Of a stretch of 61,400 nt of DNA, positions 4,803 to 57,822 are shown in pieces. Source of the DNA: Candidatus Saccharimonadales bacterium (GTDB taxonomy: Bacteria; Patescibacteriota; Saccharimonadia; Saccharimonadales; JACQNP01); NCBI GenBank assembly GCA_041742395.1, contig JBGSIS010000024.1, forward strand, positions 1 to 61,400. The letters run 5' to 3'. The notes beneath the pieces were generated by a model, which searched no databases, was not told where the DNA came from, and saw only the letters and a program-made list of their open reading frames with translations. Every line of letters starts with the position of its first letter. The stretch's first letter is position 1. A program made the translations under genes and the position numbers.

Positions 4803-4916
4803 ATGAAAGAGTTACTTTTATTTATATTTTTACCAAGCATAATCGCATGTATTATTTTAATTCCGTATATTATCTATAAAGATAGAAAAAAGAATAGAAA
4901 TAAAGATTTACAGTAA
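4803..4916 (+). CDS. possible 37-aa single-TM micro-protein
   Basis: Hand-translated: MKELLLFIFLPSIIACIILIPYIIYKDRKKNRNKDLQ, i.e. a TM helix plus a basic tail. Too short for the ORF track. No SD seen, so it could be chance in AT-rich DNA. Confidence 0.25.
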   Translation: MKELLLFIFLPSIIACIILIPYIIYKDRKKNRNKDLQ

Positions 4917-4946
4917 CTTTACTAATATGTTGGTAGAATATATATA

Positions 4947-6416
4947 GTGAGTAAAAAAGTTATTGTTATTGGTGCTGGTTTCGGCGGCCTTAGTGCCGCA
5001 GCATATTTAGGCCAATACGGCTACGACGTAACTATATTAGAAAAAAACCCATCTGCAGGTGGACGAGCGATGGTTAAAATGGCTCAGGGCTACACCTTTG
5101 ATTTGGGCCCTTCATGGTATCTAATGCCAGATGTTTTTGAGGAATTTTTTGGAGACTTTGGTAAAAAACCAAGTGATTTCTACGATTTAGTTGATCTAAA
5201 TCCGTCATATAAAGTCTTCGATCAGAAAGATACTTTCGAGGTGCTCACCACTCCTGATGTCTATCACTTATTCGAAGATTTGGAACCCGGTAGTACAAAG
5301 GAAATAAAAAAACTGTTAAGCAAAACCCAAAAAGAGTATGAGACAGTTAGGAAAAAGTTATTAATTACTCCCCAAAAAAGTATTACTGAAATTGGGAGAA
5401 ATCCAGAGTCACTCAAGTTTTTACTTAACCCAGAACTAACGCGTTCTTATCATTCAAGAATTAGTAAATATACTAGTAGTCCCGAAATACAGAGAATCTT
5501 AGAATTTATGACTGTATTTATGGGGGGCAGTCCAGAGAACATACCTGCAATGTACAGTTTATTGGCACATGTAGATTTGGGGATGGGCGTAAAATACCCC
5601 TTAGGTGGAATGGGTAAATTAGTCGATGCTTTTGTGAATGTCGCCAAGAAACAGGGTGTAAAAATAATCTATAATTCTGAAGTTAAATCCATAAAATCAA
5701 CAAAAAACATTGTTAGCAATGTAGAGACCTCAAAAGGTAAGTTGTTTGAAGCAGATATTGTTATTGCAAATGCTGACTATCATTATGTTGAAACAAAGAT
5801 GCTAGATACTAAAAATCAAAAATACTCCGAGGGATATTGGGATAAAAAAGTTCTGTCGCCAAGTGGTTTGCTAATTTATCTCGGGGTAAAAAAGAAATTA
5901 CCAAATTTACTTCACCACAACTTGTTTTTTGATGCTGACTGGCACAAACATTTCGACGAAGTATTTAATAAGCAGGTCTGGTCAGAAGAGCCACTGCTTT
6001 ATGTTTGCGTACCAAGCAAAACGGATAATAGTGTAGCGCCAGAGGGGAAAGAAAATATGTTTATTCTTGCTCCTGTTGCTAATGGTGATCAGCCATCAGA
6101 CGAAGTTATTAAAAAAACAGTTGATTCAATTATAAAAAGAATTGAGAAAAAAATAGGCACTAAATTTAGCCAAGATATTGAGTTTAAGGACGTAAGGGCT
6201 CACGATTACTTTAAAAATACTTTTAATGCGTACAGAGGCAATGCCTTTGGCTTGGCACATACTTTCATGCAATCAGGTCCTTTTAGACCAAAAATGCAAA
6301 GTACTAAGCTTAAGGGTCTGTATTATGTTGGTCAGTACACTAACCCAGGCACCGGTGTGCCACTAGTAACTTTGTCAGGAAAAGCAGTGAGTAATTTAAT
6401 ATTAGGTAGAAGATGA
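4947..6416 (+). CDS. crtI: phytoene desaturase family FAD oxidoreductase (CrtI/CrtN type)
   Basis: N-terminal dinucleotide fold KKVIVIGAGFGGLSAAAYL..V.ILEK....GGR. C-terminal YYVGQYTNPGTGVPLV is typical of CrtI. GTG start. Stop overlaps the crtB start (ATGA at 6413-6416). Confidence 0.8.
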   Translation: MSKKVIVIGAGFGGLSAAAYLGQYGYDVTILEKNPSAGGRAMVKMAQGYTFDLGPSWYLMPDVFEEFFGDFGKKPSDFYDLVDLNPSYKVFDQKDTFEVLTTPDVYHLFEDLEPGSTKEIKKLLSKTQKEYETVRKKLLITPQKSITEIGRNPESLKFLLNPELTRSYHSRISKYTSSPEIQRILEFMTVFMGGSPENIPAMYSLLAHVDLGMGVKYPLGGMGKLVDAFVNVAKKQGVKIIYNSEVKSIKSTKNIVSNVETSKGKLFEADIVIANADYHYVETKMLDTKNQKYSEGYWDKKVLSPSGLLIYLGVKKKLPNLLHHNLFFDADWHKHFDEVFNKQVWSEEPLLYVCVPSKTDNSVAPEGKENMFILAPVANGDQPSDEVIKKTVDSIIKRIEKKIGTKFSQDIEFKDVRAHDYFKNTFNAYRGNAFGLAHTFMQSGPFRPKMQSTKLKGLYYVGQYTNPGTGVPLVTLSGKAVSNLILGRR

Positions 6417-13105: not shown

Positions 13106-15757
13106 ATGGAAAAAACTGATAAAAAACGGCTTGTGGTTATAGATGGAAAATCAGTTTTCTACCGTGGCTACTATGCAATGTCTTACTTAAGCATGAAGGA
13201 TGGCACACCAACGGGGGGTGTTTATGGATTTGCTGTAATGGCACTTGAGGTTATTAAGCGATTAAGCCCTGACTATGTATGTGTAGCCTGGGATAAGCCA
13301 AAAACAAATATAAGAAAGAGACTAGAGCTTTATTCAGAATATAAAGCTGGTCGAAAACCTGCTCCACCTGATTTCTATGAACAAATACCAATTTTGCATG
13401 AACTTTTGGACGCTTTTGGTTGGCCACTTTACGAACTAGATGATTACGAAGCCGATGATATTATGGGAACACTTGCCGTTAAAGCTAAAGAATCTGGTAT
13501 AGAGACAATCTTAGTAACAAGTGATCTTGATTTATTGCAAATGATAAATGATAGTGTTCATGTTTATGCTCTGAAGAAAGGGCTGAGTAACATCGAGCTT
13601 TTTCACCCTGAATCATTTACAGAAAAATATGGAATAGATGTTAGTCAATTCCTGGATTTAAAAGCTCTTAAAGGAGATAGTTCAGATAATATACCTGGAG
13701 TGCCTGGAATAGGCGAGAAAGGTGCGACAGAGCTTCTCAAGCAATATGAAACACTAGACGGTGTATACGAAAATATTAATCTTATTAAAGATTCTATTAA
13801 ATCAAAACTTGTCGCCGGTAAAGAATCCGCATATTTGAGCAAAAAAATTGCCGCTATCTGGACGGATGCTCCGGTTGATTTAGATTTAGAATCGCTCGAT
13901 GTCGCAAACTGTAATCCTGAGAAGGTTAGAGAAATATTACAAAAGCTTGAATTCAAGACTCTTGTTAGACAATTACCAGAGGTTATGCAAGTGCAAGAGC
14001 AACACATGCATCAAGTAGATGTTAATTTGCCACTTCCGAAAAACATTATAATCGATAACGATGATCTGCTCTCTCAAAGTTTAGATATTGAAGACGCCTC
14101 TGAGGTGATTGTCTATAGTTACTCTGAGGGCAAGCATGGGAAAAAACCAAAATTATTGCTCATTAGCCCATCTCCGAATCTACTGTATACAATAATTATA
14201 GATAAAATTGATATAAAGGTTTTGACTTCTAAAATTTCAGAATTGTTTGAAAAAGAAACTACTTTAAAAATTGGTTATGATATCAAAAATACTATCAAAG
14301 TTATTTTTGAACTTGGTATTAAGTTTGATGGTGTTGGTCACGATGTATTAATTGGAGCATTTTTATTGAATAGTCTTAGGAGAGAGCAAAGTTTGAGCGA
14401 ATTAGCTTTGGCTGATCTTGGATATCAGGGTTCTGAGTTTGATAATTTGCCACCTGAAGAAGTTATCGATAGAGCCCCAGAAATAATCGCAGTAATTAGA
14501 GGGCTTTATGAGCAACAAGTTACTAAACTGGCAGAGTTTCCTAAACTCAACGAACTTGCTCAGTCTATAGAGTGGCCAGTTATACAGGTGTTGGCTGCTA
14601 TGGAATACGAGGGTATAAAGTTAGATACATCTTACCTCGATAAAATGTCAGTTGAGTTAGCTGATCAGATTAGCGATATAGAGCAAGAAGTTTTTGGTTA
14701 TGCTAATCAAGAATTTAATGTAAGTTCTCCCTCCCAGTTGGCAGAGGTACTTTTTAGTAACTTGGAGCTACCGACAGCAGGTATTAAAAAAGGAAAAACC
14801 GGGTTTTCTACTGCTGCAAAAGAACTTGATAAGCTTCGTGGTCAACACCCAATAATTGACTTAATTACTGAGTATCGAGAGTATACCAAGTTAAAAAATA
14901 CCTACATTGATACTTTGCCTAAAATGATCGACAGTAATTCTCGACTCCATACTACTTTTAACCTTACTATCGCTCAAACTGGCAGGCTAAGCAGCATAGA
15001 CCCTAATCTACAGAATATCCCGGTTAGAACTGAATTAGGTAATCGCATTCGTAAGGCATTCGTTGCTGGGGAAGGTAATGTTTTTGTTAGTGCAGATTAT
15101 TCACAATTTGAACTCCGTCTTGCTTCATTTCTCGCAAATGATCAAGATCTTATGGATATGTTCAACCAAGACGTCGACATACATACCGCCACAGCATCTC
15201 AAATTTACGGAAGAAATCCAGAAGACGTTACTAAGAACATGAGGCGAGACGCAAAAGTAATTAACTTTGGAATACTATATGGAATGAGCCCGCATGGCTT
15301 AAGCGTAGCTACTGGAATGTCAATGCAGCAGGCTAAGACATTTATTGATAAATATTTTGAACTTAGAAAACCAATTCTGATTTATATGGATAACCTAAAA
15401 AAACAAGCAAAGATTGACGGATATGTAGAGACGTTGTTTGGACGAAGAAGGCCAATGCCAGATATAAATTCTTCAAATTTTATTGTTAGACAGGCAGCTG
15501 AAAGGGCGGCAATAAATATGCCAATTCAAGGAACTGAAGCCGATTTAATGAAGATGGCAATGATAGTTGTAGAAGATAGATTAGACAACGATTGTAAGCA
15601 GTTACTACAGATCCATGATTCAATTATGGTGGAGTGCCCAGAGTCAAAAGCAAAAGATGTGGCCAATTTGTTAAAACATACTATGGAAAATATTCATAAA
15701 CTTCCAGTTAAGCTAACAGTAGATACTGCAACTGGTAAAACATGGGGAGACTTATAG
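13106..15757 (+). CDS. polA: DNA polymerase I
   Basis: 5-prime nuclease domain (LVVIDGKSVFYRGYYA, GIPGVPGIGEKGA). Pol motif A VSADYSQFELRL and motif B RRDAKVINFGILYGMS. Motif C reads QIHDS instead of QVHDE. No DxE exo-I motif seen in the middle domain. Confidence 0.95.
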   Translation: MEKTDKKRLVVIDGKSVFYRGYYAMSYLSMKDGTPTGGVYGFAVMALEVIKRLSPDYVCVAWDKPKTNIRKRLELYSEYKAGRKPAPPDFYEQIPILHELLDAFGWPLYELDDYEADDIMGTLAVKAKESGIETILVTSDLDLLQMINDSVHVYALKKGLSNIELFHPESFTEKYGIDVSQFLDLKALKGDSSDNIPGVPGIGEKGATELLKQYETLDGVYENINLIKDSIKSKLVAGKESAYLSKKIAAIWTDAPVDLDLESLDVANCNPEKVREILQKLEFKTLVRQLPEVMQVQEQHMHQVDVNLPLPKNIIIDNDDLLSQSLDIEDASEVIVYSYSEGKHGKKPKLLLISPSPNLLYTIIIDKIDIKVLTSKISELFEKETTLKIGYDIKNTIKVIFELGIKFDGVGHDVLIGAFLLNSLRREQSLSELALADLGYQGSEFDNLPPEEVIDRAPEIIAVIRGLYEQQVTKLAEFPKLNELAQSIEWPVIQVLAAMEYEGIKLDTSYLDKMSVELADQISDIEQEVFGYANQEFNVSSPSQLAEVLFSNLELPTAGIKKGKTGFSTAAKELDKLRGQHPIIDLITEYREYTKLKNTYIDTLPKMIDSNSRLHTTFNLTIAQTGRLSSIDPNLQNIPVRTELGNRIRKAFVAGEGNVFVSADYSQFELRLASFLANDQDLMDMFNQDVDIHTATASQIYGRNPEDVTKNMRRDAKVINFGILYGMSPHGLSVATGMSMQQAKTFIDKYFELRKPILIYMDNLKKQAKIDGYVETLFGRRRPMPDINSSNFIVRQAAERAAINMPIQGTEADLMKMAMIVVEDRLDNDCKQLLQIHDSIMVECPESKAKDVANLLKHTMENIHKLPVKLTVDTATGKTWGDL

Positions 15758-35667: not shown

Positions 35668-36597
35668 ATGAAATATTCATATTTGTATGGTTCTGTTGGC
35701 AAGCCATTGGCTTATCAGAATGTTCCGTACAAAAACAAAAAGTTTTTAATTGTTTCAATTGTATTGTTATTGGTGTTTATAATTGGAACATCAGTTTCGC
35801 AGTTTACCAAAACAAACTACAACATTGTTGAAGCTTCTCCTAACAATCTTACTGTCCAAAATAATGAGAGCACCGTTAATGAAGCTCTCGAATCAAATGA
35901 TCAAGTTACAGAAGCTGAGGTCGCTACTAACTACACCATAGATATTAGTCCTTGGTTGGCTACGCACAAAGGTGACTATTCAGTTGCGGTTTTTGATGGC
36001 GAAAACAAAATCGTAAACCACCAAACGAATAAACAGTTTTATATGGCTAGTATCTATAAACTATACACAGCTTATATTGGTTACCAAAAAATTGATTCCG
36101 GAGAATGGAATGAAAACGAAATATATATGAATGGTTGGACCAGGGGAAAGTGTCTAACTGAGATGATCAGAACATCGAATAACGAATGTGGAGAGAAAAT
36201 GGCTTCTGAAATCGGGTATGCATTTTTGCAAACGAAACTTAAGTACTACGGCATGTTAAATACTTCATTTGATTATGATTTTGTTACTACAGTAGATGAT
36301 GCTTCAATTGTATTGAAGAGAATTTACGATAAAATGGATTTAAGTGAAGATTCAACTAATAAACTAATTGATTCAATGAAGCTCCAGATTCATAGAGACG
36401 TTCTACCAAGAGGTCTGGGAGGCGATTGGCAAGTTAGTAATAAAGTTGGTTTTAGAAGCTCTGATGCTATTTATAACGACGTAGGTATTGCTACAAACAA
36501 AGACGGCAAGGCTATAATTTTTAGTATTTTCAGCAAGGATGCGGGGACTAACAACTTATCTAATTTGGCAAGTTATATAAGAGAAAATCTAAAATAA
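35668..36597 (+). CDS. membrane-anchored serine hydrolase (class A beta-lactamase / PBP-like)
   Basis: N-terminal TM FLIVSIVLLLVFIIGT. SxxK motif ASIYK. KVG (KTG-like) near the C-terminus (NKVGF). Confidence 0.6.
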   Translation: MKYSYLYGSVGKPLAYQNVPYKNKKFLIVSIVLLLVFIIGTSVSQFTKTNYNIVEASPNNLTVQNNESTVNEALESNDQVTEAEVATNYTIDISPWLATHKGDYSVAVFDGENKIVNHQTNKQFYMASIYKLYTAYIGYQKIDSGEWNENEIYMNGWTRGKCLTEMIRTSNNECGEKMASEIGYAFLQTKLKYYGMLNTSFDYDFVTTVDDASIVLKRIYDKMDLSEDSTNKLIDSMKLQIHRDVLPRGLGGDWQVSNKVGFRSSDAIYNDVGIATNKDGKAIIFSIFSKDAGTNNLSNLASYIRENLK

Positions 36598-37680
36598 TTA
36601 TTTAGTAACATTAAACCTAAATTCGACTACATCATTGGGTTGCATGACGTAATCTTTGCCTTCGGTTCTGACTTTACCAGAAGATTTGGCAGCTTGTTCT
36701 GACCCAGATTCTATTAGATCGTTGTAGTCCACGACTTGAGCAGCTATAAATCCTTTCTCAAAATCTCCATGAATTACTCCGGCGGCTTGAGGAGCAGTGT
36801 GTCCTTTTTTTATTGTCCAAGCCCTGACTTCTTGTTCGCCAGCTGTTAGATAGCTCTGTAGTCCTAGAATGTCATATGCATTGTGAATTACCTTTACCAG
36901 TCCAGACTCATTTACTCCGTAGCTTTCTAATAATTCTAGTCGATCGGGTTCGTCTAGTCCTCTTAACTCACTTTCAATTTTGGCGCAGACAAATAATGCA
37001 TGAGAAGATCCCACTAAATTCTGGAGTTCTTTTTTCTTTGCATCATCACTAAGTGTTTCTTCGTCGACATTGAATAGGTATATGACTGGCTTCATAGTCA
37101 AAAGATGTAAATCCTGAACATATTCTTCGTTAATTTTTTCGCCCGACCCAGAAAGGGGCGTGTCATTATCTAGAATTGATTTAATTTTTATCAGTTCATC
37201 AACTTGTGGTTTTAGTTTAGGATTAGACTTTGCTTCTTTTTGAATTTTTGGCAGTCTGTTTTCTACGGTCTGCAAGTCAGCCAAGACAAGTTCGGTATTG
37301 ATTACCTCAATATCTTTTTGGGGTGAGCGGTTATTATCGACATGTTGAACATCTGAATCTTCAAACGCTCGAACAACATGACAAATAGCATTACAGCTTC
37401 TAATATTTGCTAAAAATTGATTACCTAGTCCTTCACCTTTGCTGGCGCCGGCAACTAATCCGGCAATATCTACAAAAGTTACAGTCGCAGGCTTGATTGG
37501 CGCATTGCTGTACATTTCACTAAGTTTGTTAAGGCGATTATCTGGTACTGGTACTATTCCAGTATTTGGCTCAATTGTGGCAAAAGGGTAGTTTGCCGCC
37601 AATATATTATTGTCAGTTAGTGCGTTAAAAAGCGTAGATTTGCCTACATTTGGTAATCCTACTATTCCAATGCTTAGCAT
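36598..37680 (-). CDS. ychF: ribosome-binding ATPase YchF
   Basis: MLSIGIVGLPNVGKSTLFNALT G1 motif, DIAGLV, TGS-like C-terminal domain. Confidence 0.95.
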   Translation of the reverse strand: MLSIGIVGLPNVGKSTLFNALTDNNILAANYPFATIEPNTGIVPVPDNRLNKLSEMYSNAPIKPATVTFVDIAGLVAGASKGEGLGNQFLANIRSCNAICHVVRAFEDSDVQHVDNNRSPQKDIEVINTELVLADLQTVENRLPKIQKEAKSNPKLKPQVDELIKIKSILDNDTPLSGSGEKINEEYVQDLHLLTMKPVIYLFNVDEETLSDDAKKKELQNLVGSSHALFVCAKIESELRGLDEPDRLELLESYGVNESGLVKVIHNAYDILGLQSYLTAGEQEVRAWTIKKGHTAPQAAGVIHGDFEKGFIAAQVVDYNDLIESGSEQAAKSSGKVRTEGKDYVMQPNDVVEFRFNVTK

Positions 37681-39328
37681 CTAACCCAACCTCTCTATCA
37701 GAATTATGTTGTGTTGTGTCTCTTGTATCGCTATGCTCAACATCTAACCCTACCTTTTTTACAGTTAATGATGTTGCATACGCTGGAATCTTTCCGCATA
37801 TTCTTACTTTCTCCTTCGTTGCTATTACTTTATCAACTATTTTACGTACCGTAAAAAGCTTTTCATCGTAGCCCAGATTTTCTAGGTACTTCTTAAAAGG
37901 CTCTACAGACGATTCTAGATCTATCTCTCGCAGTTGGGCTAACTTATTCGCCTCTGGCTTATTGATCATGTCTAGCAGCTCTTTACGACGCCTCGCAACG
38001 CTATTCATCTGATCGGTATACACATCTTCAGACATTGTGCCCAGTCCCCAAGCTTTCACGTAACGACGTTCTTCTTGCTCAAGTGCTTTTTTCTGCATGA
38101 GTAGTTCGTCTTTTTTAGGGCTTTGTCCTACAAGTAGCTTTTTTTCTTCTGCGTAACGATCGAGCTGTTTCTGTAGTAGGGTAGGGTCTGTCATCAATTC
38201 GCACAGTTTAGCCCAACCCACTGCATCTAGTACCTGTACGTTTACTCCTGCTTCAAAACAGGTACGTGGCTTAGGGAACTTAAGTAGACGGTCAGTACAA
38301 CGGTAGTAGAAATGACCATTCTGACCCTCGCCAGTACGAGAAGTGCCGCAAGTACACTTTATCAAGCCACCGAACAGGTAAGGATTCTTCTTAAAGCGTT
38401 GGCTGAGTTTGCCATTACTCTTAATCTGAGATTGAACTTTTTGATAAAGCTCATCACTAATAATACGTGGTGCTTCTACTTCAAGCCATTCTTCACGAGG
38501 TCTGGTTTTACGGCTACCTTTCAATGAATGACGATGTTGATATTTCTTCTGGGTTTTAGCCATAGGATATTTGCTAATAACACTCTCAGACTTATAGTAA
38601 AAGTGCTTACCAATATATGTTTCGTTTTTCAGCATACGGTGTATTGGACCATTCGACCATGTGTCACGCTTCTGCTTTTTCGGTGGAATACCCATATCAT
38701 ATAAGCGACGGATTACTTCCTTAATAGATACACACTCGATACCAATCCATTCGAAGATCATTCTGACTACTTTGGCTTCTTCATCATTTATAACGAACTT
38801 ACCGTTGATCTTGTCATGACCTTTGCCTTTAATGGGTATGTAATCATACCCGTATGCAGCTTGATAACCGAGTAATTTTCCAGAACGAACCTTATTGAGT
38901 TTTCCAATACGAAAGCGTTCAGAAATTTTCATACGCTCATATTCATGGAACATTCCCATTACGCCGCCCATGAGCTTTTCTTCTGGTGATACACCGTTAA
39001 TGTCGTGTAAGCTATGAAACTCTATGCCTAACTGGCTTAGTTCATCTATTACTATTTCCTGATGGAAGAATATACGGGCAAGGCGGCCCTTGTCATAGAC
39101 ATATAAAATATCAAACTTCTTTTCGAGTGCGTCAGCCCTCATAAGATCAAGTGAGGGACGTTCTAGTATTGCACCTGACCAACCTTCATCAACATATATA
39201 CAGCTTTCAAGAAGAGAATTGCCATCTGATTCAATTTTTGGCTTAATCTCTGAAAGTTGGTTTTGTACAGTTTGTTCGTCTTTTTGAAGTTCGGTACTTA
39301 CCCTAGCGTAAAGTGCTGCACGTAACAT
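37625..39328 (-). CDS. large serine recombinase (integrase)
   Basis: Resolvase catalytic N-terminus AALYARVSTELQ. Recombinase domain. Zinc beta-ribbon CTCG...YYRC...C. Coiled-coil region. 567 aa. The 3-prime end runs 56 nt into ychF in another frame. Confidence 0.9.
   Translation of the reverse strand: MLRAALYARVSTELQKDEQTVQNQLSEIKPKIESDGNSLLESCIYVDEGWSGAILERPSLDLMRADALEKKFDILYVYDKGRLARIFFHQEIVIDELSQLGIEFHSLHDINGVSPEEKLMGGVMGMFHEYERMKISERFRIGKLNKVRSGKLLGYQAAYGYDYIPIKGKGHDKINGKFVINDEEAKVVRMIFEWIGIECVSIKEVIRRLYDMGIPPKKQKRDTWSNGPIHRMLKNETYIGKHFYYKSESVISKYPMAKTQKKYQHRHSLKGSRKTRPREEWLEVEAPRIISDELYQKVQSQIKSNGKLSQRFKKNPYLFGGLIKCTCGTSRTGEGQNGHFYYRCTDRLLKFPKPRTCFEAGVNVQVLDAVGWAKLCELMTDPTLLQKQLDRYAEEKKLLVGQSPKKDELLMQKKALEQEERRYVKAWGLGTMSEDVYTDQMNSVARRRKELLDMINKPEANKLAQLREIDLESSVEPFKKYLENLGYDEKLFTVRKIVDKVIATKEKVRICGKIPAYATSLTVKKVGLDVEHSDTRDTTQHNSDREVGLDAKHWNSRITKCRQIYAF
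37668..37692. repeat. direct repeat copy 1 (spans the ychF start codon and RBS-proximal region)
   Basis: CAATGCTTAGCATCTAACCCAACCT. 21 of 25 positions are identical to 37731-37755, offset 63 nt. Confidence 0.7.
37731..37755. repeat. direct repeat copy 2 (diverged duplicate of the ychF 5-prime end, inside the recombinase ORF)
   Basis: CTATGCTCAACATCTAACCCTACCT. On the minus strand this reads GGGTTAGATGTTGAGCATAGCGATA (MLSIAI), versus the ychF sequence GGGTTAGATGCTAAGCATTGGAATA (MLSIGI). Confidence 0.7.
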
Positions 39329-39703: not shown

Positions 39704-41881
39704 CTAAGCTTTCGGTTGCTCCTGAGTAGCTGACCCACCATGCTCACCACTATATTGTTCTGGTTCGAGGAGCTGAGGGAAAATCAGTTTGTTACGCTTA
39801 TCATTCGGGTCTTTTTCTTGTGTGATCAGACCTGCCGCTTCAAGCATAGGTAAGATTTGACGGCGTAGAATATCGTCGTTTGGTAAGCGTTGCTCTAGTT
39901 CATAGTGACGTTTGATTATCTCTTTACGACTAACACCTTCATCATTGACTGTTTGATGACCTGAGTTCTTTGCCATGTAGATCGGTAGTATGAATTTCTT
40001 ATAGAATTCATACGTGTAGGGGGGAATATTCAGCTCTTGGCTCTTATTAATCTTCTGCCAGACCTCAAAGCCCTGATCTACGTCAGTTGGTTGGGCTACT
40101 ATGTTACCTTTGTCATCACGACGAAACCAAACATTTAGTAACGCAATACATTTGATTATTGAAAGCAGGTGACTGACATCACGCTGGTGGCGTGGTTTAG
40201 TTGATTGAACATGGCTGAGAAAGCGACGCTCAATTTCATTAGGGTTGGGAACTATAACGTCATCGACGTGCTCAAGTTTAATTGCAAGAACACGGTCTTT
40301 TAGCTGTTGACGTTCAGGATTCGATTCAATATTCGCTAAGAATTCAACCTTATTGGCACTACGATGCGTCGCCATATGGATGCCTTCTTTTACTTTTTCA
40401 ATATTTGTCTCAGGGCTGAGTAAGATTGCACGAGTTGCTTCTTGTTCATCTAGACGCATACCTGCTGAACAAAATATTGTTGCAGGGAAGCCACGAATAA
40501 TTATATTCTTCGCACGGTTCGAACCCTTTTGATTCTTATCTGTTATTTTGTAGGAAATTTCTTTTTTATCGTGCGACATTACAGGACGTAGATTCTCCTG
40601 AAGCTTAGGGTTTGGTTGCTCCAAGAAGATTAAAATCTTACGTTCAAGATCAACGATGTGTACGTTACGTTCTTTATCAAAGCTTGCGTTGTCGTGGAAG
40701 AATGCCGTTGGAGACGCACCACCAAATTGACGTACATCTGCATCAGGGAAGTACTGTGCCACTTGCGTTGGAATGTATGTCTTACCAGTTGAGGATGGTG
40801 CGTTAAAGCTTACATTGAGCTGGCAGTCTTCTGTATATGCTGAGAGCATACATAAGAAGCTAACGAGCTTGTTCTCGTTGTCGTGCTTTATGGTGAGGTC
40901 GAGGATTGATGCGAGGTCGGTTGTGGTTATTTCTTCAAACGAGCTAACGTCTATCGGTTTTGGACCAGAGCGTAGCACCCCATTCTTAAATAAATGATCA
41001 GGGTCGGCGTAAGGTAACTTAAGATAATCTGTAATGTCACCATGTTCACCAACTTCATCAGGTAGAGTAATTTGCAGTACAGATGTTGAGGGAAGTGCTT
41101 TAGACAGTTTTTCAATTAGCTCATCTGCACCTTGTTTCCCTGCATCATCGTTGTCGTAACAAACGTATAAATGACGAACAAAGCTGAGCTGCTCGATCCA
41201 CTCATTTTTGAAGGTACGAGCACCTGCCGTTGATGATATGGCTGGTATACCGAAAGCACGAAGTACAAGACAATCAAATTCACCTTCACAGATGATAAGT
41301 TGATCGGGCATATCTTTAAGTACTTCTACGTTGAATAATGCTGCTTCACCACCCGTGCCCATATACTTTGGACCATCAGAGGGTAGGAAAGGGTCTTGAC
41401 GTAGCTTCATGAAAAGCACGTTGCCTGTAGCATCACGAACGGGTATTGTTATCCAGCTACTTCCATAAAAAACTCCATAACCTAACTGAAAATCGTCAAT
41501 ATCTTCATCTAATAAGAGACGCTCATTCTTCAACCATTCACGAATGTTGAGGGGTAGTTGCTTGTGGTAGTTCAGGGCAAGTTTTGTCTTACTCGTAACA
41601 GGATTGTTGTTTTGACGAGGCAGGTCGGATGTATTTAGACCTAAGCTTTCACGTAAGCCCTTCATACCACCTTTTTCACCACACTTGTGACAGAAGTATT
41701 GACCTGTATCTGCGTTAATATACAGGTGAGCTTCATTACCACGACTATCAGCATCACAGTTATTGAAGATACAGTGAGTGACAAGTTCTTGACCACGTTC
41801 ACGGTAGTCGATGTTTTTAGAATCTAAAAGTTCTTTGGGGTTATTATTTGGATTTTCGTGCATTACGTTCCTCTGTTTCAT
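39704..41881 (-). CDS. replication protein: zinc-finger + Toprim primase domain fused to a P-loop NTPase (helicase-like)
   Basis: Cys motifs CIFNNCDAD...FCHKCGEKGG. Toprim LIICEGEFDCL and VCYDNDDAGKQG. Walker A-like NAPSSTGKTY. 725 aa. Confidence 0.75.
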   Translation of the reverse strand: MKQRNVMHENPNNNPKELLDSKNIDYRERGQELVTHCIFNNCDADSRGNEAHLYINADTGQYFCHKCGEKGGMKGLRESLGLNTSDLPRQNNNPVTSKTKLALNYHKQLPLNIREWLKNERLLLDEDIDDFQLGYGVFYGSSWITIPVRDATGNVLFMKLRQDPFLPSDGPKYMGTGGEAALFNVEVLKDMPDQLIICEGEFDCLVLRAFGIPAISSTAGARTFKNEWIEQLSFVRHLYVCYDNDDAGKQGADELIEKLSKALPSTSVLQITLPDEVGEHGDITDYLKLPYADPDHLFKNGVLRSGPKPIDVSSFEEITTTDLASILDLTIKHDNENKLVSFLCMLSAYTEDCQLNVSFNAPSSTGKTYIPTQVAQYFPDADVRQFGGASPTAFFHDNASFDKERNVHIVDLERKILIFLEQPNPKLQENLRPVMSHDKKEISYKITDKNQKGSNRAKNIIIRGFPATIFCSAGMRLDEQEATRAILLSPETNIEKVKEGIHMATHRSANKVEFLANIESNPERQQLKDRVLAIKLEHVDDVIVPNPNEIERRFLSHVQSTKPRHQRDVSHLLSIIKCIALLNVWFRRDDKGNIVAQPTDVDQGFEVWQKINKSQELNIPPYTYEFYKKFILPIYMAKNSGHQTVNDEGVSRKEIIKRHYELEQRLPNDDILRRQILPMLEAAGLITQEKDPNDKRNKLIFPQLLEPEQYSGEHGGSATQEQPKA

Positions 41882-47507: not shown

Positions 47508-47759
47508 ATGGCAAAGATAACAATTTACAGTACAGCGACTTGCGCATACTGCAAGATGCTCAAAAGCTATTTGCAGAGCAAAGATATTGCCTACAATGAA
47601 AAACACGCCGACCAGGATCAAAAACTCGCTGAAGAACTTTACGAAAAGAGCGGTCAGCTAGGTGTGCCTTTTACTATTATAGAAAAAGAAGACGGTACTG
47701 AGGAAAAGGTACTGGGTTTTGACCGGCAGAAGATCAACGCAATACTAGGAATTGCCTAA
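47508..47759 (+). CDS. glutaredoxin-like (NrdH/Grx family) protein
   Basis: ITIYSTATCAYCKMLKSYL CxxC active site. GVPFTII. 83 aa. SD AAGGAGG upstream. Confidence 0.8.
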   Translation: MAKITIYSTATCAYCKMLKSYLQSKDIAYNEKHADQDQKLAEELYEKSGQLGVPFTIIEKEDGTEEKVLGFDRQKINAILGIA

Positions 47760-47763
47760 ATTC

Positions 47764-48060
47764 ATGAAGGCTATCTGGAAAGGAAAAACCATTGCTGAAA
47801 GTGACCAGACAATACTCATTGAAGGCAACTACTATTTTCCACCAGATTCAGTTGCATTTGAGTATCTAAAGAAAAACAAACGACACTCGCTTTGCTACTG
47901 GAAGGGGCTTGCCAGCTACTATGACGGGATAGATGGTGACTACAAGGAAAAGAGCATAGCTTGGTTCTACCCAAAGGCTACTTGGGCATCAAGAAAAATC
48001 ATGGGTATAGACTTTTCAAACTATGTCGCCTTTTGGGGTAACGTCAAGCTAACACAATAA
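47764..48060 (+). CDS. DUF427 domain protein (island copy 1)
   Basis: MKAIWKGKTIAESDQTILIEGNYYFPPDSV...CYWKG.ASYYD matches the DUF427 pattern. ATG lies 4 nt after the Grx stop. The track ORF opens at a TTG at 47752. Confidence 0.75.
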   Translation: MKAIWKGKTIAESDQTILIEGNYYFPPDSVAFEYLKKNKRHSLCYWKGLASYYDGIDGDYKEKSIAWFYPKATWASRKIMGIDFSNYVAFWGNVKLTQ

Positions 48061-48074
48061 ATAAAAGGAGAATT

Positions 48075-48377
48075 ATGCAAGCTATTTGGAACAACAAAGT
48101 CATCGCGGAAGCAAAAAAAGACGAATTGATTTACATTGAAGGCAACTGGTACTTCCCACCTGATGCAGTAAAGAAAGACTACTTCAAGCCAAACAGTGAA
48201 CACACTACTTGCTTCTGGAAGGGAGAAGCCAGCTACTACAACATTGATGTAGACGAAAATGTGAATGAAGGTGGAGCTTGGTATTACCCAGCACCTATGA
48301 GTGGATCAGTGGAGCGTGTTAAAAAGGATTTCACTAACTACGTAGCGTTTTGGCGTGGTGTGGAAGTAAAGGAGTAA
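48075..48377 (+). CDS. DUF427 domain protein (island copy 2)
   Basis: MQAIWNNKVIAEA...IEGNWYFPPDAV...CFWKGEASYYN. 64/100 identical to the chromosomal copy at 57520 by my hand alignment. Confidence 0.8.
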   Translation: MQAIWNNKVIAEAKKDELIYIEGNWYFPPDAVKKDYFKPNSEHTTCFWKGEASYYNIDVDENVNEGGAWYYPAPMSGSVERVKKDFTNYVAFWRGVEVKE

Positions 48378-50622: not shown

Positions 50623-50787
50623 ATGGACGAGAAAAAAATATACCAATGCCTTGAGTGCGGCCTTCACTATGAAGACGAAACTATCGCAAAACAGTGCGAA
50701 GCATTCTGTAAAGAGAACAATGCTTGCAGCCTGGAAATTACTCGACATTCAATCGAGACTAGTCAAAGGCAAGGAACAGTGACCTAA
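50623..50787 (+). CDS. 54-aa zinc-ribbon-like micro-protein
   Basis: Hand-translated: MDEKKIYQCLECGLHYEDETIAKQCEAFCKENNACSLEITRHSIETSQRQGTVT (CxxC ... CxxxC ... C). Below the ORF-track cutoff. Confidence 0.45.
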   Translation: MDEKKIYQCLECGLHYEDETIAKQCEAFCKENNACSLEITRHSIETSQRQGTVT

Positions 50788-50798
50788 CCTGTTCTATA

Positions 50799-51620
50799 AT
50801 GCTGTTTCAAATGAATGAGGGTCGTTTTCATAAAAGACTAAAAGAGATTCTTTCTGCTAATCGTGGTCCAAATAATAGCCCCGACGAGCAGTTTCATGAT
50901 GTTATGCATAATGAAGTACTTGGGCGATCGAAAAAGGGTTGGGACGAAAATGCTGCAGCACAGGTTATAAGAGAATTTGAGTGGGCTACAGGAACTCAGC
51001 CCAAAAGTAATGAGCTTCCTGAAGGTGAGATAAAAGCCATATTTAAGAAGTTCTTGGAAGACCGTGACTGTACGTTCACTGCAATACCTGAAGACAAAAG
51101 AAAAACACCCGATAATTACATAGAGGGCAACAAACTAAAGTATATCTGCGAAATCAAATCACCTGAGTTGAAGCTAGATCTAGAAACCCAACTCTATAAA
51201 TTTAAGACTACTCATAGAAAAATATTGGGCTTCATTCACACTGCGGTTAAGCAATTCGAATCTTTGGACTCAAAGCATCATCTACCAAGGGTATTAGTAT
51301 TCACTTCGATTACACCACAACTAAATTGGAAATCATTTACAGATGCAATACAGGGTGGCGTTATAGATCAGAAAGGTAGTCGCTCACCTGATTTTTCTAA
51401 AACACCTGTGTATACGAGTACTCTGCCCTTATTATCAGACGTGGATTTATTCACTTGGTTTCAAGTAAGCGGAGCGGGTGATAAATTTTATCAAGTAAGC
51501 TATTTCATCAATGAAAAATCAACACAGAGTAAAGCATGTTTGGAGTTGGTTAATAATCTGTCACGTATTAAGGTTTCTAGCATGAATATGGATAACATAT
51601 TCTCACTAATCAGTGCGTAA
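50799..51620 (+). CDS. cassette protein A: predicted PD-(D/E)xK nuclease-fold protein
   Basis: KTPDNYIEGNKLKYICEIKSPE gives D (51111-51113) ... E-I-K (51150-51158), the canonical PD-x(n)-ExK spacing. TATAAT at 50795-50800 suggests the real start is the second ATG at 50811 (MNEGRF). No named family recognised. Confidence 0.6.
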   Translation: MLFQMNEGRFHKRLKEILSANRGPNNSPDEQFHDVMHNEVLGRSKKGWDENAAAQVIREFEWATGTQPKSNELPEGEIKAIFKKFLEDRDCTFTAIPEDKRKTPDNYIEGNKLKYICEIKSPELKLDLETQLYKFKTTHRKILGFIHTAVKQFESLDSKHHLPRVLVFTSITPQLNWKSFTDAIQGGVIDQKGSRSPDFSKTPVYTSTLPLLSDVDLFTWFQVSGAGDKFYQVSYFINEKSTQSKACLELVNNLSRIKVSSMNMDNIFSLISA

Positions 51621-51646
51621 ATACTTTAGTCAGTTAGAATAACAAT

Positions 51647-52636
51647 ATGGAAAATACTCTTGGAGTTAAGTCATTCATAACGTGGCATCCGCCCACTAAA
51701 GATGTTGTCGTCGGTAATATCAAATTGTCTAATGGCAACGGAGTAAAGATAACCACAAAAACCACTAATTCGAGTGGTTACTCGCAGCGGTCTACTGTGA
51801 GTCTTGAGTACGCAACTTTGGCTCAGGGTGAGCTAGATATGTGGGTGCTATTTCACGCTTTTATTCTGGGTGACCCGTGGGTTCTCCCGTCGTATATGGG
51901 AACCATTCATGGAGTTGTTGAGTGGCTAGACAAGCCCTTTGGCTCGGAGAAGGATTATGACGATTTCTTGAATACTGCATATCAAACAGAGGGCATCACT
52001 CAGAAAATGAGCTATCAAGAGCTGTACAAAAGGTTCGTTGGAATTAGCGAACAACAAAGCGGCATGGCAAATAATTGGCTTCTTGATTTGAAGCCTGGCG
52101 ACGGCTGGTCGCATGGTGAGATGGCTGACTACTCGTATTGGAGAATGGTTATTGATTTCTCGATAGTCGAAGCAATAATGGGGCGGCAACCGTTTTGTGA
52201 AGAAGCTCATGAATGCTCAAAGTGTCATAAGACTAACATCCAACACAATCCAGAAGATGCAAAGGTATGGGCTAACAATAGGTTGTTGGAGATAATTGGT
52301 GACTCCGAGAAAACAGACCAGTATATGAAAGTTATTTGGACTGTACGACAGAATATACGACATAAAACCGCACACGAGAGTGATTATCCGCATCAAAGAC
52401 CTTCAAGCCCGCTTCAGCATGGTGACAATGAGTTCGATATTGATACGGTCGTAAATAATTTCAAGACCGATAGCCATGCACTGACCGCACTAGAGAATAA
52501 TATGCATGAGGTTACACGAATATTATTACTGGACGATATTCTGCAAACGAAAGTCTTCCCTGACATACGCCCATATATGATTCGATCAGGCGGGATGAGC
52601 TATGAGGAGTTCATGAAGTTAGTGGAGCAAAAATAG
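51647..52636 (+). CDS. cassette protein B: Cys/His cluster + HEPN-like Rx4H motif protein
   Basis: CEEAHECSKCHK metal-binding-like cluster, followed by VRQNIRHKTAHES (R-x4-H twice, nt 52346-52375). TAGAAT at 51635-51640 lies 6 nt before the ATG. No named family recognised. Confidence 0.6.
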   Translation: MENTLGVKSFITWHPPTKDVVVGNIKLSNGNGVKITTKTTNSSGYSQRSTVSLEYATLAQGELDMWVLFHAFILGDPWVLPSYMGTIHGVVEWLDKPFGSEKDYDDFLNTAYQTEGITQKMSYQELYKRFVGISEQQSGMANNWLLDLKPGDGWSHGEMADYSYWRMVIDFSIVEAIMGRQPFCEEAHECSKCHKTNIQHNPEDAKVWANNRLLEIIGDSEKTDQYMKVIWTVRQNIRHKTAHESDYPHQRPSSPLQHGDNEFDIDTVVNNFKTDSHALTALENNMHEVTRILLLDDILQTKVFPDIRPYMIRSGGMSYEEFMKLVEQK

Positions 52637-52639
52637 TAA

Positions 52640-53350
52640 ATGCCACGTATAAAAGGTTTTGATGAGATTGAGGCTGAGCTTTCACACCATCCTGGGAAAA
52701 TGGCTCACGATGAGTGGCAGAACTTAGCCAGAATCTTCTATGATATTTATCAAAAAAACAGAACAGAACTCATCAGGCTCTTAGAGGAGCCGTCAAAAAA
52801 GGATGAGCTATCCACTGAGCTATTTCAAAATGTAAGACCACCTACTGTAAGAGAAGCGTATACTAACGAGCTTCTGCGAAGTTTGTTTAATTATTTGTCG
52901 AGCCTAAGTTCTCTAGTAGATGCGAGTATGCGGCTTACTAGCAAATATAATAGCGAACAAATGGCTGGGTATAACGCCCAAAGGGAAATAATCACCAACT
53001 CGGATATAAATGATTTTTTCGGGAAGCTACGCAACTACATCCAACACTATGGGATTCCACCGCTAGATTGGACCATACAGCTGAACAATAACAAGCTAAA
53101 TACATGTACATACTTTTTATCCAATGGTAAGTTGCTGGCTTGGAAGGGATGGAGTTCGAAAGCAAAGACGTATATTGGAGATCAAGATGTAGATTTACTC
53201 AAATCAATTCAGTTACATGGAGAGATGATAGATAAAGCTCTTCTTGCACTACTAACTCTTTTCCCAAACATTCACTCAGCAGATACTGAGTCATATAACA
53301 AGCTAATGCATCGTAGGAATGACATCTTATCGGGGAAAATCAAGCTCTAA
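52640..53350 (+). CDS. cassette protein C: HEPN-like (RNxxxH) protein
   Basis: FFGKLRNYIQHYG (R 53030-53032, H 53045-53047) matches the HEPN/Abi-type RNxxxH signature. Starts 3 nt after the stop of protein B. Confidence 0.6.
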   Translation: MPRIKGFDEIEAELSHHPGKMAHDEWQNLARIFYDIYQKNRTELIRLLEEPSKKDELSTELFQNVRPPTVREAYTNELLRSLFNYLSSLSSLVDASMRLTSKYNSEQMAGYNAQREIITNSDINDFFGKLRNYIQHYGIPPLDWTIQLNNNKLNTCTYFLSNGKLLAWKGWSSKAKTYIGDQDVDLLKSIQLHGEMIDKALLALLTLFPNIHSADTESYNKLMHRRNDILSGKIKL

Positions 53351-53391
53351 GGATTGTAAAAATATAGTGGTGAGTGTGGTGGGTCTGTAAT

Positions 53392-53577
53392 TTACCACTT
53401 ACCGCCAGCAGTCTCTTGTAGTTCTTTAATCTGTTGAGGCGTATAGCCTCGTGTTCTTTTATCTAGTGGAGGCATCGAGAAGGTTATATCAAATGGTATT
53501 GTTGCGTCTTGTGAATACCAATTGATAAACTCATTAGATATTATCATAACAGAAGAGGCTGAAATTGACGAAATCAC
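53392..53577 (-). CDS. questionable 61-aa ORF at the right island boundary
   Basis: GTG start directly preceded by an in-frame TAA. No motif recognised. It occupies an otherwise non-coding 230-nt interval. Confidence 0.25.
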   Translation of the reverse strand: MISSISASSVMIISNEFINWYSQDATIPFDITFSMPPLDKRTRGYTPQQIKELQETAGGKW

Positions 53578-53757: not shown

Positions 53758-54567
53758 ATGAATGATGAAAAACTTGAAAAAGCTTTGCAGGTAGCAATTG
53801 ACGCCTCCAAGGAAGCTGGAACTAAGCTAAAGAAGCACTACGGTAGGGTTGAATCAGAGGCTAAAAGTGATAGTGGTAATCATGCTGGTGATGTAGTAAC
53901 TCAGTTAGACAGATTGACCGAAAGTTTCTTGTCCAAACAATTTAAGAAATTTGATCCAAAGATTGGTTTTAGGGGAGAGGAGTTTGGTGTCGAAAACCAT
54001 GCAGATACCACTTGGTTGGTAGATCCTATTGATGGAACTAGTCACTTTGTTCGAGGAATTCCATTTTGTACTACAATGATTGCCCTTGTTCAGAATGGTG
54101 AAGTTGTGATGTCGGTAATAAATGACTTCATTAGAGATGAAGTTTATTGGGCAATAAAAGGTAAAGGATCTTATAAAGACGGAGCTAGAATATATGTCAG
54201 TGACAGATCACTTAAACAGGCTGTTTTATCTTTCGAGACAAGACTAGAGAACCTTGAGAATATGGAAACATACTTGAATGTAAGGGAGTTAGCAGGGGGT
54301 ATTGTTAGTACTGTAAACTGTGGCTTTGAATTTTCATTGATTGCATCCGGCAAATTGGATGCGAGAATTACCAAAGACCCTTATGGTTTCGACTGGGACT
54401 ATGCTCCAGGAACGTTGCTAGTAGAAGAAGCTGGGGGTATTGTCAGAAATCACGGAAGTGATAACTACGACTTTACCAATCATGAATTTATTGCGGCAAA
54501 CCCAGTTATTTTTGCCGAGTTAACAGAAGGTCGAGATGCAATATTTCCTAAGAGTGGTCAAAAATGA
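53758..54567 (+). CDS. inositol monophosphatase family protein
   Basis: FRGEEFG and WLVDPIDGTSHFVRG motifs, and WDYAPG. The start is taken at the ATG at 53758, just downstream of GATAAT (53743-53748). The track ORF from 53584 is an upstream extension. Confidence 0.85.
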   Translation: MNDEKLEKALQVAIDASKEAGTKLKKHYGRVESEAKSDSGNHAGDVVTQLDRLTESFLSKQFKKFDPKIGFRGEEFGVENHADTTWLVDPIDGTSHFVRGIPFCTTMIALVQNGEVVMSVINDFIRDEVYWAIKGKGSYKDGARIYVSDRSLKQAVLSFETRLENLENMETYLNVRELAGGIVSTVNCGFEFSLIASGKLDARITKDPYGFDWDYAPGTLLVEEAGGIVRNHGSDNYDFTNHEFIAANPVIFAELTEGRDAIFPKSGQK

Positions 54568-55037
54568 GAACCATAAACAGAGAAATAGTCGGTGCATTAC
54601 TTATTTCAAAAGACAACAAGATATTGCTGGGAAAAACCGCAGAAACTGCCGGTGGAGTATACTCGGGTAGCTGGGTTATTCCTGGTGGGGGAGTAGACGA
54701 CGGAGAAACTAGGGAGCAGGCAGTAATTCGCGAAGTTTCAGAAGAAACACATTTCGATATTTCAGGATTAAAACTTGAGCTAATTGATGATACGGCAACT
54801 GGAGAAAGTGAAAAAACACTTAAAACATCGGGCGAACGAGTTTTGGTAAAAATGAATTTCCATGAGTTTAAAATAGTTTTCGATAAGACTGCTATAGAAT
54901 TACGCGAAAATCCTTCAGAAGAGTTAGTTGAGTTAAAGTGGTTTACTCCAGAAGAGCTTGAAACCGTTAAACTGTCTAAGCCAACTAGGGAGTTGCTTGT
55001 TAAAGTTGGCATTTTTGCAGACTATTCTGGTATATAG
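54564..55037 (+). CDS. NUDIX hydrolase
   Basis: Nudix box GGGVDDGETREQAVIREVSEETH. ATGA overlap with the IMPase gene. Confidence 0.8.
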   Translation: MRTINREIVGALLISKDNKILLGKTAETAGGVYSGSWVIPGGGVDDGETREQAVIREVSEETHFDISGLKLELIDDTATGESEKTLKTSGERVLVKMNFHEFKIVFDKTAIELRENPSEELVELKWFTPEELETVKLSKPTRELLVKVGIFADYSGI

Positions 55038-57519: not shown

Positions 57520-57822
57520 ATGAAAGCAGTTTGGAATAATCAAGTAATAGCAGAAGCTGATAAAGCAGATTTAATTTATATAGAAGGCAATTGGTATTTT
57601 CCTCCATCAGCAATAAACAAAGAATTTTATAAATCTAGCGTTACACATACAACGTGTTTTTGGAAAGGCGAGGCAAGTTACTACAATGTAGAAATAGATG
57701 GTCAGACCAATGAGGACGCAGCTTGGTATTATCCCGAACCTAAAGAAGGTTCGACAGAAAAGGTAGGAAAAAACTTCAAGGATTATGTCGCTTTTTGGCG
57801 AGGCATACAGGTTAGTGAGTAA
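57520..57822 (+). CDS. DUF427 domain protein (chromosomal copy)
   Basis: MKAVWNNQVIAEADKADLIYIEGNWYFPPSAI...CFWKGEASYYN. Confidence 0.8.
   Translation: MKAVWNNQVIAEADKADLIYIEGNWYFPPSAINKEFYKSSVTHTTCFWKGEASYYNVEIDGQTNEDAAWYYPEPKEGSTEKVGKNFKDYVAFWRGIQVSE

Follow-up and report, generated by a model that had tools for sequence, protein, structure and literature searches.

Saccharibacteria and other bacteria of the candidate phyla radiation (CPR) have tiny genomes, and experimental work on their phages has only just begun. To our knowledge, very few defence systems have been recognised in these lineages. Hotspots of P2/P4-like elements reportedly carry DUF4238 and other defence cargo, and ApeA is said to be a single-gene defence protein that has a HEPN domain at its C-terminus, after an N-terminal domain. 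Two further groups are close to the genes described here: the small stand-alone members of the PD-(D/E)xK nucleases (VRR-NUC 4qbo, the TnsA N-terminal domain, REase-ARP) and the HEPN RNases of abortive-infection (Abi) type, which include AbiD/AbiF (Abi_2) and families associated with restriction–modification (R-M). HEPN RNases are normally dimeric and have a composite active site. HEPN proteins are defined by an Rx4-6H motif in which the R is followed by N, D or H and which stands at the end of helix-3 before a loop, and many HEPN families are associated with R-M operons (Anantharaman et al. 2013, PMC3710099). Here we analyse a stretch of 61,400 nucleotides (nt) from Candidatus Saccharimonadales bacterium (assembly GCA_041742395.1, contig JBGSIS010000024.1, positions 1 to 61,400; hereafter the window), which holds a block of three genes, A, B and C. 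We give roughly even odds (about 0.5) to the reading that these genes are candidate defence nucleases restricted to Saccharibacteria, each mobile on its own and stacked here as a mosaic, and not an obligate three-part machine. The features that carry the argument are as follows.

50811–51620, plus strand: gene A, 269 amino acids (aa) from 50811; the longest open reading frame (ORF), from 50799, has 273 aa.
51108–51158, plus strand: putative catalytic motif of A, P104-D105-x12-E118-x-K120, conserved in the superfamily.
51647–52636, plus strand: gene B, 329 aa; an N-terminal beta-rich domain (about residues 1–55), then a helical domain.
52196–52246, plus strand: Cys/His cluster of B (C184, H188, C190, C193, H194, H200), a probable zinc knuckle between two helices.
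52346–52375, plus strand: VR234QNIR238H239KTAH243 of B, with the conserved core R238-H239-x3-H243 (Rx4H, H after R).
52640–53350, plus strand: gene C, 236 aa; helical with one beta-hairpin (142–160).
53030–53047, plus strand: R131-N132-Y-I-Q-H136 of C (RNxxxH; KLRNYIQH), conserved.

A preliminary description of this DNA, made from its letters and a list of its ORFs, had reported three co-directional ORFs with nuclease-type motifs and a separation of 3 nt between B and C. The ORF list and a reading of the sequence bear out both statements, with the motifs at the codons given: the ORFs lie on the plus strand at 50799–51620 (A, 273 aa), 51647–52636 (B, 329 aa) and 52640–53350 (C, 236 aa), 26 nt separate A from B, and the B–C junction reads as the TAG stop of B, then TAA, then the ATG of C. 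The real start of A is probably 50811, because the homologues of A without exception begin at codon five of the 273-aa ORF (MNE...). Ratios of nonsynonymous to synonymous substitution (dN/dS) against the two other copies of the block, in loci L001 and L016, are 0.07 for A, 0.06–0.10 for B and 0.11–0.14 for C; the three are thus real genes under purifying selection and more than chance ORFs.

For the genomic distribution of the three families, 52 loci were fetched (given below by their L numbers) and A, B and C were mapped in them by tblastn and hidden Markov models. The A-B-C trio, in the same order and with the same spacing, was present in three contexts only: the window, L001 and L016. DNA homology covers 50790–53349 of the window in L001 and 50806–53534 in L016 and ends amid unrelated flanks, so the trio is a discrete 2.56-kb block that entered three contexts. 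Between window positions 50811–53350 and L016 585–3124, synonymous divergence (dS) falls from 0.77 in A through 0.55 in B to 0.14 in C. A five-fold difference between A and C in the same pair of genomes indicates that the block is itself a mosaic, with recent recombination within it. Among about 24 distinct B contexts, three are the trio, three more have A adjoining B in either order (A-B in L021, B-A in L005/6 and L031), and the rest are without A and C. Conversely, B lies upstream of C in 3 of 7 contexts, and A adjoins B in 6 of 10, in both orders. A proteins at least 59% identical to that of the window come from contigs matching those of B homologues in length, and their adjacency to B was confirmed in the fetched loci; a clade of A proteins about 51–57% identical to it is never next to B.

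These counts bear directly on the interpretation first offered for the locus, an obligate three-component defence or abortive-infection system in which one DNase and two RNases would act as sensor and effectors. The same order and spacing in three unrelated flanks would suit such a system, as would purifying selection on all three genes and the lack of a strong plus-strand terminator-like site between them, the two sites found being a weak one inside C and a GC-rich one after it. The neighbourhood data argue strongly against obligate linkage, however: the trio accounts for 3 of about 24 B contexts, C has B upstream in fewer than half of its contexts (3/7), A is next to B in 6/10 and in either orientation of the pair, and the five-fold dS difference makes the block itself composite. 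Absence of the trio from other genomes, which the preliminary description had itself named as a refuting finding, is largely what was found, and we consider the obligate three-gene system highly improbable. A functional pairing of A with B within one A subclade is plausible, because A and B adjoin in both orders there.

The proteins belong to no family that we could name. With a reporting limit of E ≤ 1, searches of Pfam, NCBIfam and PADLOC-DB v2 gave zero matches for A, B and C, and PDB sequences gave nothing significant with the single proteins or with family profiles. The sole match in PHROGs was that of C to phrog_30874, of unknown function and weak (1.7e-4). The earlier statements that the three match no known family and that no named anti-phage system is recognisable in the locus therefore hold, the latter by a PADLOC check with no family at E ≤ 1. 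Counted as clusters at 90% identity, homologues number 62 for A, 63 for B and 33 for C; all are annotated 'hypothetical', and the named source organisms are mostly Saccharibacteria or Patescibacteria. A scan of 185,579 species representatives with two short peptide patterns, which may under-count, found B in three, among them one Candidatus Saccharibacteria metagenome-assembled genome (MAG) and one Patescibacteria MAG. IMG/VR viral contigs contained none of the three families, and we rejected the idea that they are phage-borne. On plasmids B was absent, C had one 25%-identical relative on a Miltoncostaea megaplasmid, and the core of A had weak, core-only relatives (about 30%) in Leptospira plasmids; the contexts around these plasmid matches were uninformative. 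Literature searches for Saccharibacteria with HEPN and for DUF2779 with defence returned nothing relevant, and neither did Rfam and tRNA scans. Separately, a long ORF contains a match to Rfam SNORD36 at 13542–13616 (plus strand), which scored barely past the gathering threshold (31.3 bits, E 0.49) and is almost certainly due to chance. Overall, the families are restricted almost entirely to the Saccharibacteria phylum and are patchily distributed within it. High sequence conservation within the phylum, together with the failure of B and C to match any family or fold, could also be expected of ordinary enzymes of nucleic-acid metabolism or repair, or of non-enzymatic Saccharibacteria proteins in which the motif likeness of B and C would be coincidental. 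Against this stand the very patchy distribution, with B in three species representatives, the variable contexts with recurring known defence genes, and an R and an H that are invariant even at 25–27% identity; it is the least probable of the explanations that we weighed.

Protein A has a helical module at its N-terminus (about 68 aa) and a core of about 200 aa with PD-(D/E)xK-type residues. Searching 1.8 billion representative proteins with a profile yielded a superfamily of 142 representative clusters, most members of which have about 200 aa and match only positions 70–265 of A, while a few short proteins match only the N-terminal 65–105 residues. The motif reads KTPD105-x12-E118-I-K120 (codons at nt 51111, 51150 and 51156), and comes after a helix and a strand-like segment; the next helix has a conserved Q. 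Every one of 65 superfamily members (17–49% identity) has E118 and K120, and P104, D105 and Q152 each occur in at least 90%. Among these 65 the only nuclease-related Pfam matches were Tn7_TnsA-like_N (6.9e-5, one member) and REase-ARP (5e-3, one member). The best PDB profile match of A was 4qbo, 'Nuclease', at a nonsignificant E of 0.18, with PD aligned to PD and EVK to EVK. Because the motif is conserved across the superfamily and the weak best matches are families of this kind, we assign A, with high probability on sequence grounds, to an unannotated family of PD-(D/E)xK enzymes, and the PD-(D/E)xK residues first noted in A are indeed present and conserved. At the sequence level A shares P-D-x12-E-x-K with the small stand-alone members of the group and differs from them in having no significant profile match, in its N-terminal module of about 68 aa, and in a conserved C-terminal half of about 110 aa without known counterpart. 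The N-terminal module (residues 1–68, window 50799–51000, with ...SGKxWDxxVAAxxxxQxEW...) recurs as the C-terminal end of another protein, f215 (L035, about 4870–4980; E 1.6e-7 within the local set), an otherwise unrelated SEC-C/ExK protein encoded 5' of a B homologue.

Protein B carries a Cys/His cluster, FCEEAHECSKCHKTNIQH, made up of C184, H188, C190, C193, H194 and H200, which is probably a zinc knuckle. The cluster is present in 23 of 27 aligned B homologues and cleanly deleted in the other four (P0030, P0034, P0036 and P0048), and is thus an optional insert; the L040 protein, 27% identical to B, retains C-x6-C-x2-C...H. In the second motif of B, R234, R238, H239 and H243 are invariant in the 27 homologues. 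The L040 protein keeps IRHxTAH and has Y at position 234, so the conserved core is R238-H239-x3-H243. An AlphaFold2 model of B (mean predicted local distance difference test, pLDDT, 79.6; predicted template modelling score, pTM, 0.79) has an N-terminal beta domain and then helices, and places the motif at the end of helix 220–244, followed by a long loop, 241–273, of low confidence. In C, the residues R131, N132 and H136 are each found in at least 90% of 23 homologues, the sole exception being a truncated sequence, and the Miltoncostaea plasmid protein keeps the motif as LRNFTLH. In the model of C (pLDDT 91.1), which is helical, helix 122–137 ends in the motif and is followed by a beta-hairpin. 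A lack of conservation of the motif residues among homologues had been set beforehand as a refuting finding; they are conserved, and this includes relatives of 25–27% identity.

B is laid out much like ApeA: the helices and the Rx4H motif are in the domain that comes after a non-helical N-terminal one, and the gene often stands alone in defence islands. B differs in its zinc-knuckle insert and in usually adjoining a second nuclease-like gene, and no model of the PADLOC library, which we take to hold one for ApeA, matches B at E ≤ 1.

Both B (R238-H-x3-H243) and C (R131-N-x3-H136) carry an Rx4H with a polar residue after the R, and in both models the motif lies at a helix end before a loop or hairpin, a predicted placement compatible with the description of HEPN proteins (PMC3710099). 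Further points shared with the Abi-type HEPN RNases are predicted domains that are all-helical with inserts and, for C, the adjacency to R-M operons that PMC3710099 describes. In contrast to those RNases, B and C match no HEPN model of Pfam or PADLOC and no solved HEPN structure, no clear Ex3[K/R] motif was seen in either, and the two are not detectably related; we rejected them as paralogues at an hhalign probability of 5%.

Several results weigh against our reading of the block as a stack of candidate defence nucleases, some of them on this possible membership. Pfam, PADLOC and NCBIfam gave no HEPN family for B or C, and neither did Pfam for 19 diverse members of the two families, which had only weak Cupin_NOL9 and zinc-finger matches. 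Foldseek of both models against the PDB found no match at E ≤ 0.001, with no HEPN structure among the top matches of either model (the top 50 for B), and the model of C had no significant match in BFVD; the top matches of B and C were generic helical bundles, for which whole-chain Foldseek is weak, and the negative still counts as negative. PDB profile searches of the B and C families gave nothing significant, and hhalign of B, C and the proteins encoded next to B gave no family placement. The nuclease signatures first claimed for B and C thus survive as Rx4H residues conserved down to 25–27% identity, whereas their assignment to HEPN drew no profile or Foldseek match: it is a reasonable hypothesis, taken from sequence motifs and models, that failed its statistical tests. 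Beyond this, most loci were retrieved through B, which biases the partner statistics, and the species-representative scan may have missed carriers. The tight spacing, the single terminator-like site after C and the three independent copies of the trio would be compatible with a working operon in this lineage. The proposed defence role rests on gene neighbourhood and is an association only.

In most B contexts a co-directional gene ends 4–100 nt before B or overlaps it. This upstream gene is A in four contexts, family f3 in at least five contigs (including L049), f64 in two (L019 and L030), and in one context each f161 (L017), f195 (L029), f215 (L035) and f31 (L004). In L002, L003 and L039 the upstream gene is on the opposite strand and B has no co-directional partner. 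Five of these partners, each immediately upstream of a B homologue, lie as follows.

L023 902–1897 and L049 5989–6996: f3.
L019 3765–4970: f64.
L017 4451–4996: f161.
L029 1145–2404: f195.
L035 3556–4986: f215.

Read by eye, f3, f64 and f161 carry R-x-x-x-x-H (RHGWNVAH, RRNHLAH and HRNALH), and f195 and f215 carry PD...ExK-like motifs; f215 also bears a SEC-C motif. A weak AbiD match of f64 (6e-4) over the VRRNHLAHES region makes it the only one of the five partner families with profile support. A relationship of B to f64 or f3, or of C to f64, was rejected after comparison by hhalign.

From these arrangements B might be seen as the hub of a modular two-gene system with an interchangeable nuclease neighbour, either PD-(D/E)xK-like (A, f195, f215) or of R-x-x-x-x-H type (f3, f64, f161), one partner being the sensor or regulator and the other the effector, and C an unrelated add-on. 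The co-directional gene close to or overlapping B in most contexts, the nuclease-type motifs of several partners with the AbiD match of f64, the copy of the A module at the end of f215, and the adjacency to B of A proteins at least 59% identical to that of the window would all suit such a hub, as would the position of A behind B in L005/6 and L031. Yet B stands without a co-directional partner in three loci; the loci with these partners were all fetched by B searches, so that the partner counts cover B-containing loci only; the partner motifs were mostly read by eye without profile support; and defence islands cluster unrelated nucleases anyway. We regard the hub as doubtful. Also tentative is a version in which B would represent a new Saccharibacteria-specific family of modular defence, a zinc-knuckle/RHxxxH protein with an interchangeable nuclease partner, often in translational overlap, and C a second HEPN-like family serving as a back-up effector in R-M operons; in that case both would also be new in structure, their confident models having no likeness among solved structures.

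The stack of separately mobile candidate nucleases accords with the neighbourhoods of C and A. C adjoins AlwI and two D12 methyltransferases in L008/9, lies 5 nt after a type II restriction endonuclease (PADLOC 3.5e-82) accompanied by a C5 methyltransferase in L010–12, follows a membrane-like gene of unknown type near a serine recombinase in L013–15, and follows an unnamed 339-aa gene in L051. A of the 51–57% clade overlaps the end of a DUF4238 gene (PADLOC 2e-7) or ends a cassette of DUF2779 (Cas4-like), a 510-aa protein and A. The defence genes found near the three families are GmrSD, EcoRI-type methyltransferase, DUF4297-HerA, DUF4238, TIR, SLFN/AlbA_2, PLD, type I and II R-M, and HsdR with reverse transcriptase, so that adjacency to known defence genes recurs in unrelated contexts. 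A large serine recombinase abuts B or A tail-to-tail in four contexts (L004, L029, L007 and the P0154 locus), and in L004 a relaxase and a coupling protein are near B. The setting proposed at the outset, a defence island linked to a serine recombinase, is thus seen for these families in the fetched loci, where known defence genes and recombinases recur nearby. A, B and C resemble the cargo of integrative-element hotspots: singly or as small cassettes they are exchanged at the borders of elements that carry recombinases, with R-M, GmrSD, HerA-type and TIR genes as neighbours. They differ from the P2/P4-like hotspots in their Saccharibacteria (CPR) host, in the large serine recombinases and in the unnamed families of the cargo.

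The cassette of DUF2779 (a Cas4-like PD-(D/E)xK protein), the 510-aa protein and A was observed in L046–L048 (4107–7828), L007 (6195–8828) and the P0154 locus, with 3 nt at the first gene junction and a 4-nt overlap at the second. Its recurring neighbours are GmrSD, HsdR with reverse transcriptase, and serine recombinases, and the cassette is a candidate system in its own right.

The same recombinases invite another explanation, in which the three genes would be toxin modules, addiction modules or other selfish nucleases that stabilise serine-recombinase elements or spread with them and give no protection from phage. It would account for the four contexts in which B or A directly abuts a large serine recombinase at its 3' end, for the relaxase and coupling protein in L004, and for the high nucleotide identity between contigs with unrelated flanks. 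However, no small antitoxin-like partner is conserved next to A, B or C in the mapped loci, many contexts show R-M or other defence genes and no recombinase nearby, and the families are absent from IMG/VR viral contigs; we judge it improbable.

In the window, the following sites lie around the block.

50795–50800, plus strand: TATAAT hexamer, 10 nt 5' of the probable A start at 50811; a promoter role is not supported.
53358–53385, plus strand: 28-nt sequence, 8 nt after the C stop; an inverted copy (25/28) of 39732–39759.
53435–53461, plus strand: GC-rich terminator-like hairpin (53435–53451) with T-run, the clearest one, 3' of C.

The clearest terminator-like site falls inside the segment conserved with L016 (50806–53534). 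No such site was found on the plus strand between the three genes, and the one other plus-strand match, at 52865–52887 inside C, has a weaker stem (3 GC pairs of 10). A −10 element had been proposed before both A and B. That of A stands as the TATAAT 10 nt 5' of its probable start, whereas B has only TAGAAT at the corresponding place. A scan for two-hexamer (sigma-70) promoters gave no −35 partner for the TATAAT at 50795–50800, zero sites 5' of A or B, and no more sites overall than in shuffled sequences, which leaves the promoter statement for the two genes unsupported either way.

The 28-nt sequence also follows C in L016 (3135–3158), and its left arm, 39732–39759, falls within the 3'-terminal part of the Toprim/primase-like gene that neighbours the serine recombinase. 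No comparable inverted repeat occurred in 100 shuffles. We rejected the arms as transposon ends, there being no matching target-site duplication in the flanks, the left arm lying within the primase-like gene, and the recombinase lying outside the arms; the repeat could be a recombination or regulatory site. The serine recombinase of the window, with Resolvase and Recombinase domains, is at 37625–39328 on the minus strand, 11.5 kb from the cassette, whose membership of a recombinase island, as first proposed, is putative. Its ORF overlaps the start of the YchF GTPase gene (36598–37680, minus strand) by 56 nt, which suggests that the recombinase element inserted right at the 5' end of ychF.

Two small ORFs border the block. 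One, at 50623–50787 on the plus strand and 12 nt upstream of A, encodes a Cys-rich protein of 54 aa (CxxC ... C ... C) with a sub-threshold DUF7128 match (1.3e-3); it lies outside the block common to L001 and L016 and was rejected as a cassette member. The other, of 61 aa at 53392–53577 on the minus strand, lies within a 185-nt downstream segment conserved with L016 and may be spurious or a gene remnant. Farther out, a Beta-lactamase2-like gene (35668–36597) and a NUDIX gene (54564–55037) flank the variable region of the window, and genes homologous or similar to them occur near A, B or C loci in L010, L046, L013, L008 and L049. These recurring flankers hint at a conserved integration hotspot in Saccharibacteria genomes. 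The window also contains three paralogous DUF427 (NTP_transf_9) genes (repeat family D1), two in tandem at 47752–48060 and 48075–48377 and one at about 57520–57820, 9.4 kb downstream, in a run of redox genes with two DsbA-like proteins, two FMN reductases and a pyridine-nucleotide disulfide oxidoreductase. GC content in this run is raised (0.42–0.46 versus about 0.36).

Under the reading that we favour, the 2.56-kb block would be three separately mobile genes, each encoding a probable nuclease, carried as cargo of a variable defence region. We infer the enzymatic activities and the anti-phage role as follows. A would be a DNase in which D105, E118 and K120 bind the catalytic metal. B and C would most likely act, once triggered, as RNases that need no metal and cleave RNA of the host or the invader in the manner of abortive infection, the invariant R-[H/N]-x3-H being predicted to lie at a helix end as in HEPN RNases. 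The genes recombine one by one, B behind other nuclease-like genes, C behind restriction enzymes and A behind DUF4238 or the DUF2779-510aa pair, and the trio has also moved as a unit into three unrelated contexts.

In conclusion, the locus is better filed as three candidate genes with a possible A-B, or B-partner, pair than as a three-gene system. This analysis delimits three unnamed families that show strong purifying selection, single-gene mobility and repeated landing beside R-M, GmrSD, HerA-type and TIR genes. If B and C are not HEPN proteins, their confident models without structural neighbours would be of interest in themselves; if they are HEPN RNases, two families would be added to the superfamily. 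Because of their selection, phylum restriction, mobility and defence neighbours, A, B and C are good candidates for lineage-specific immunity genes of Saccharibacteria that PADLOC and Pfam have missed.

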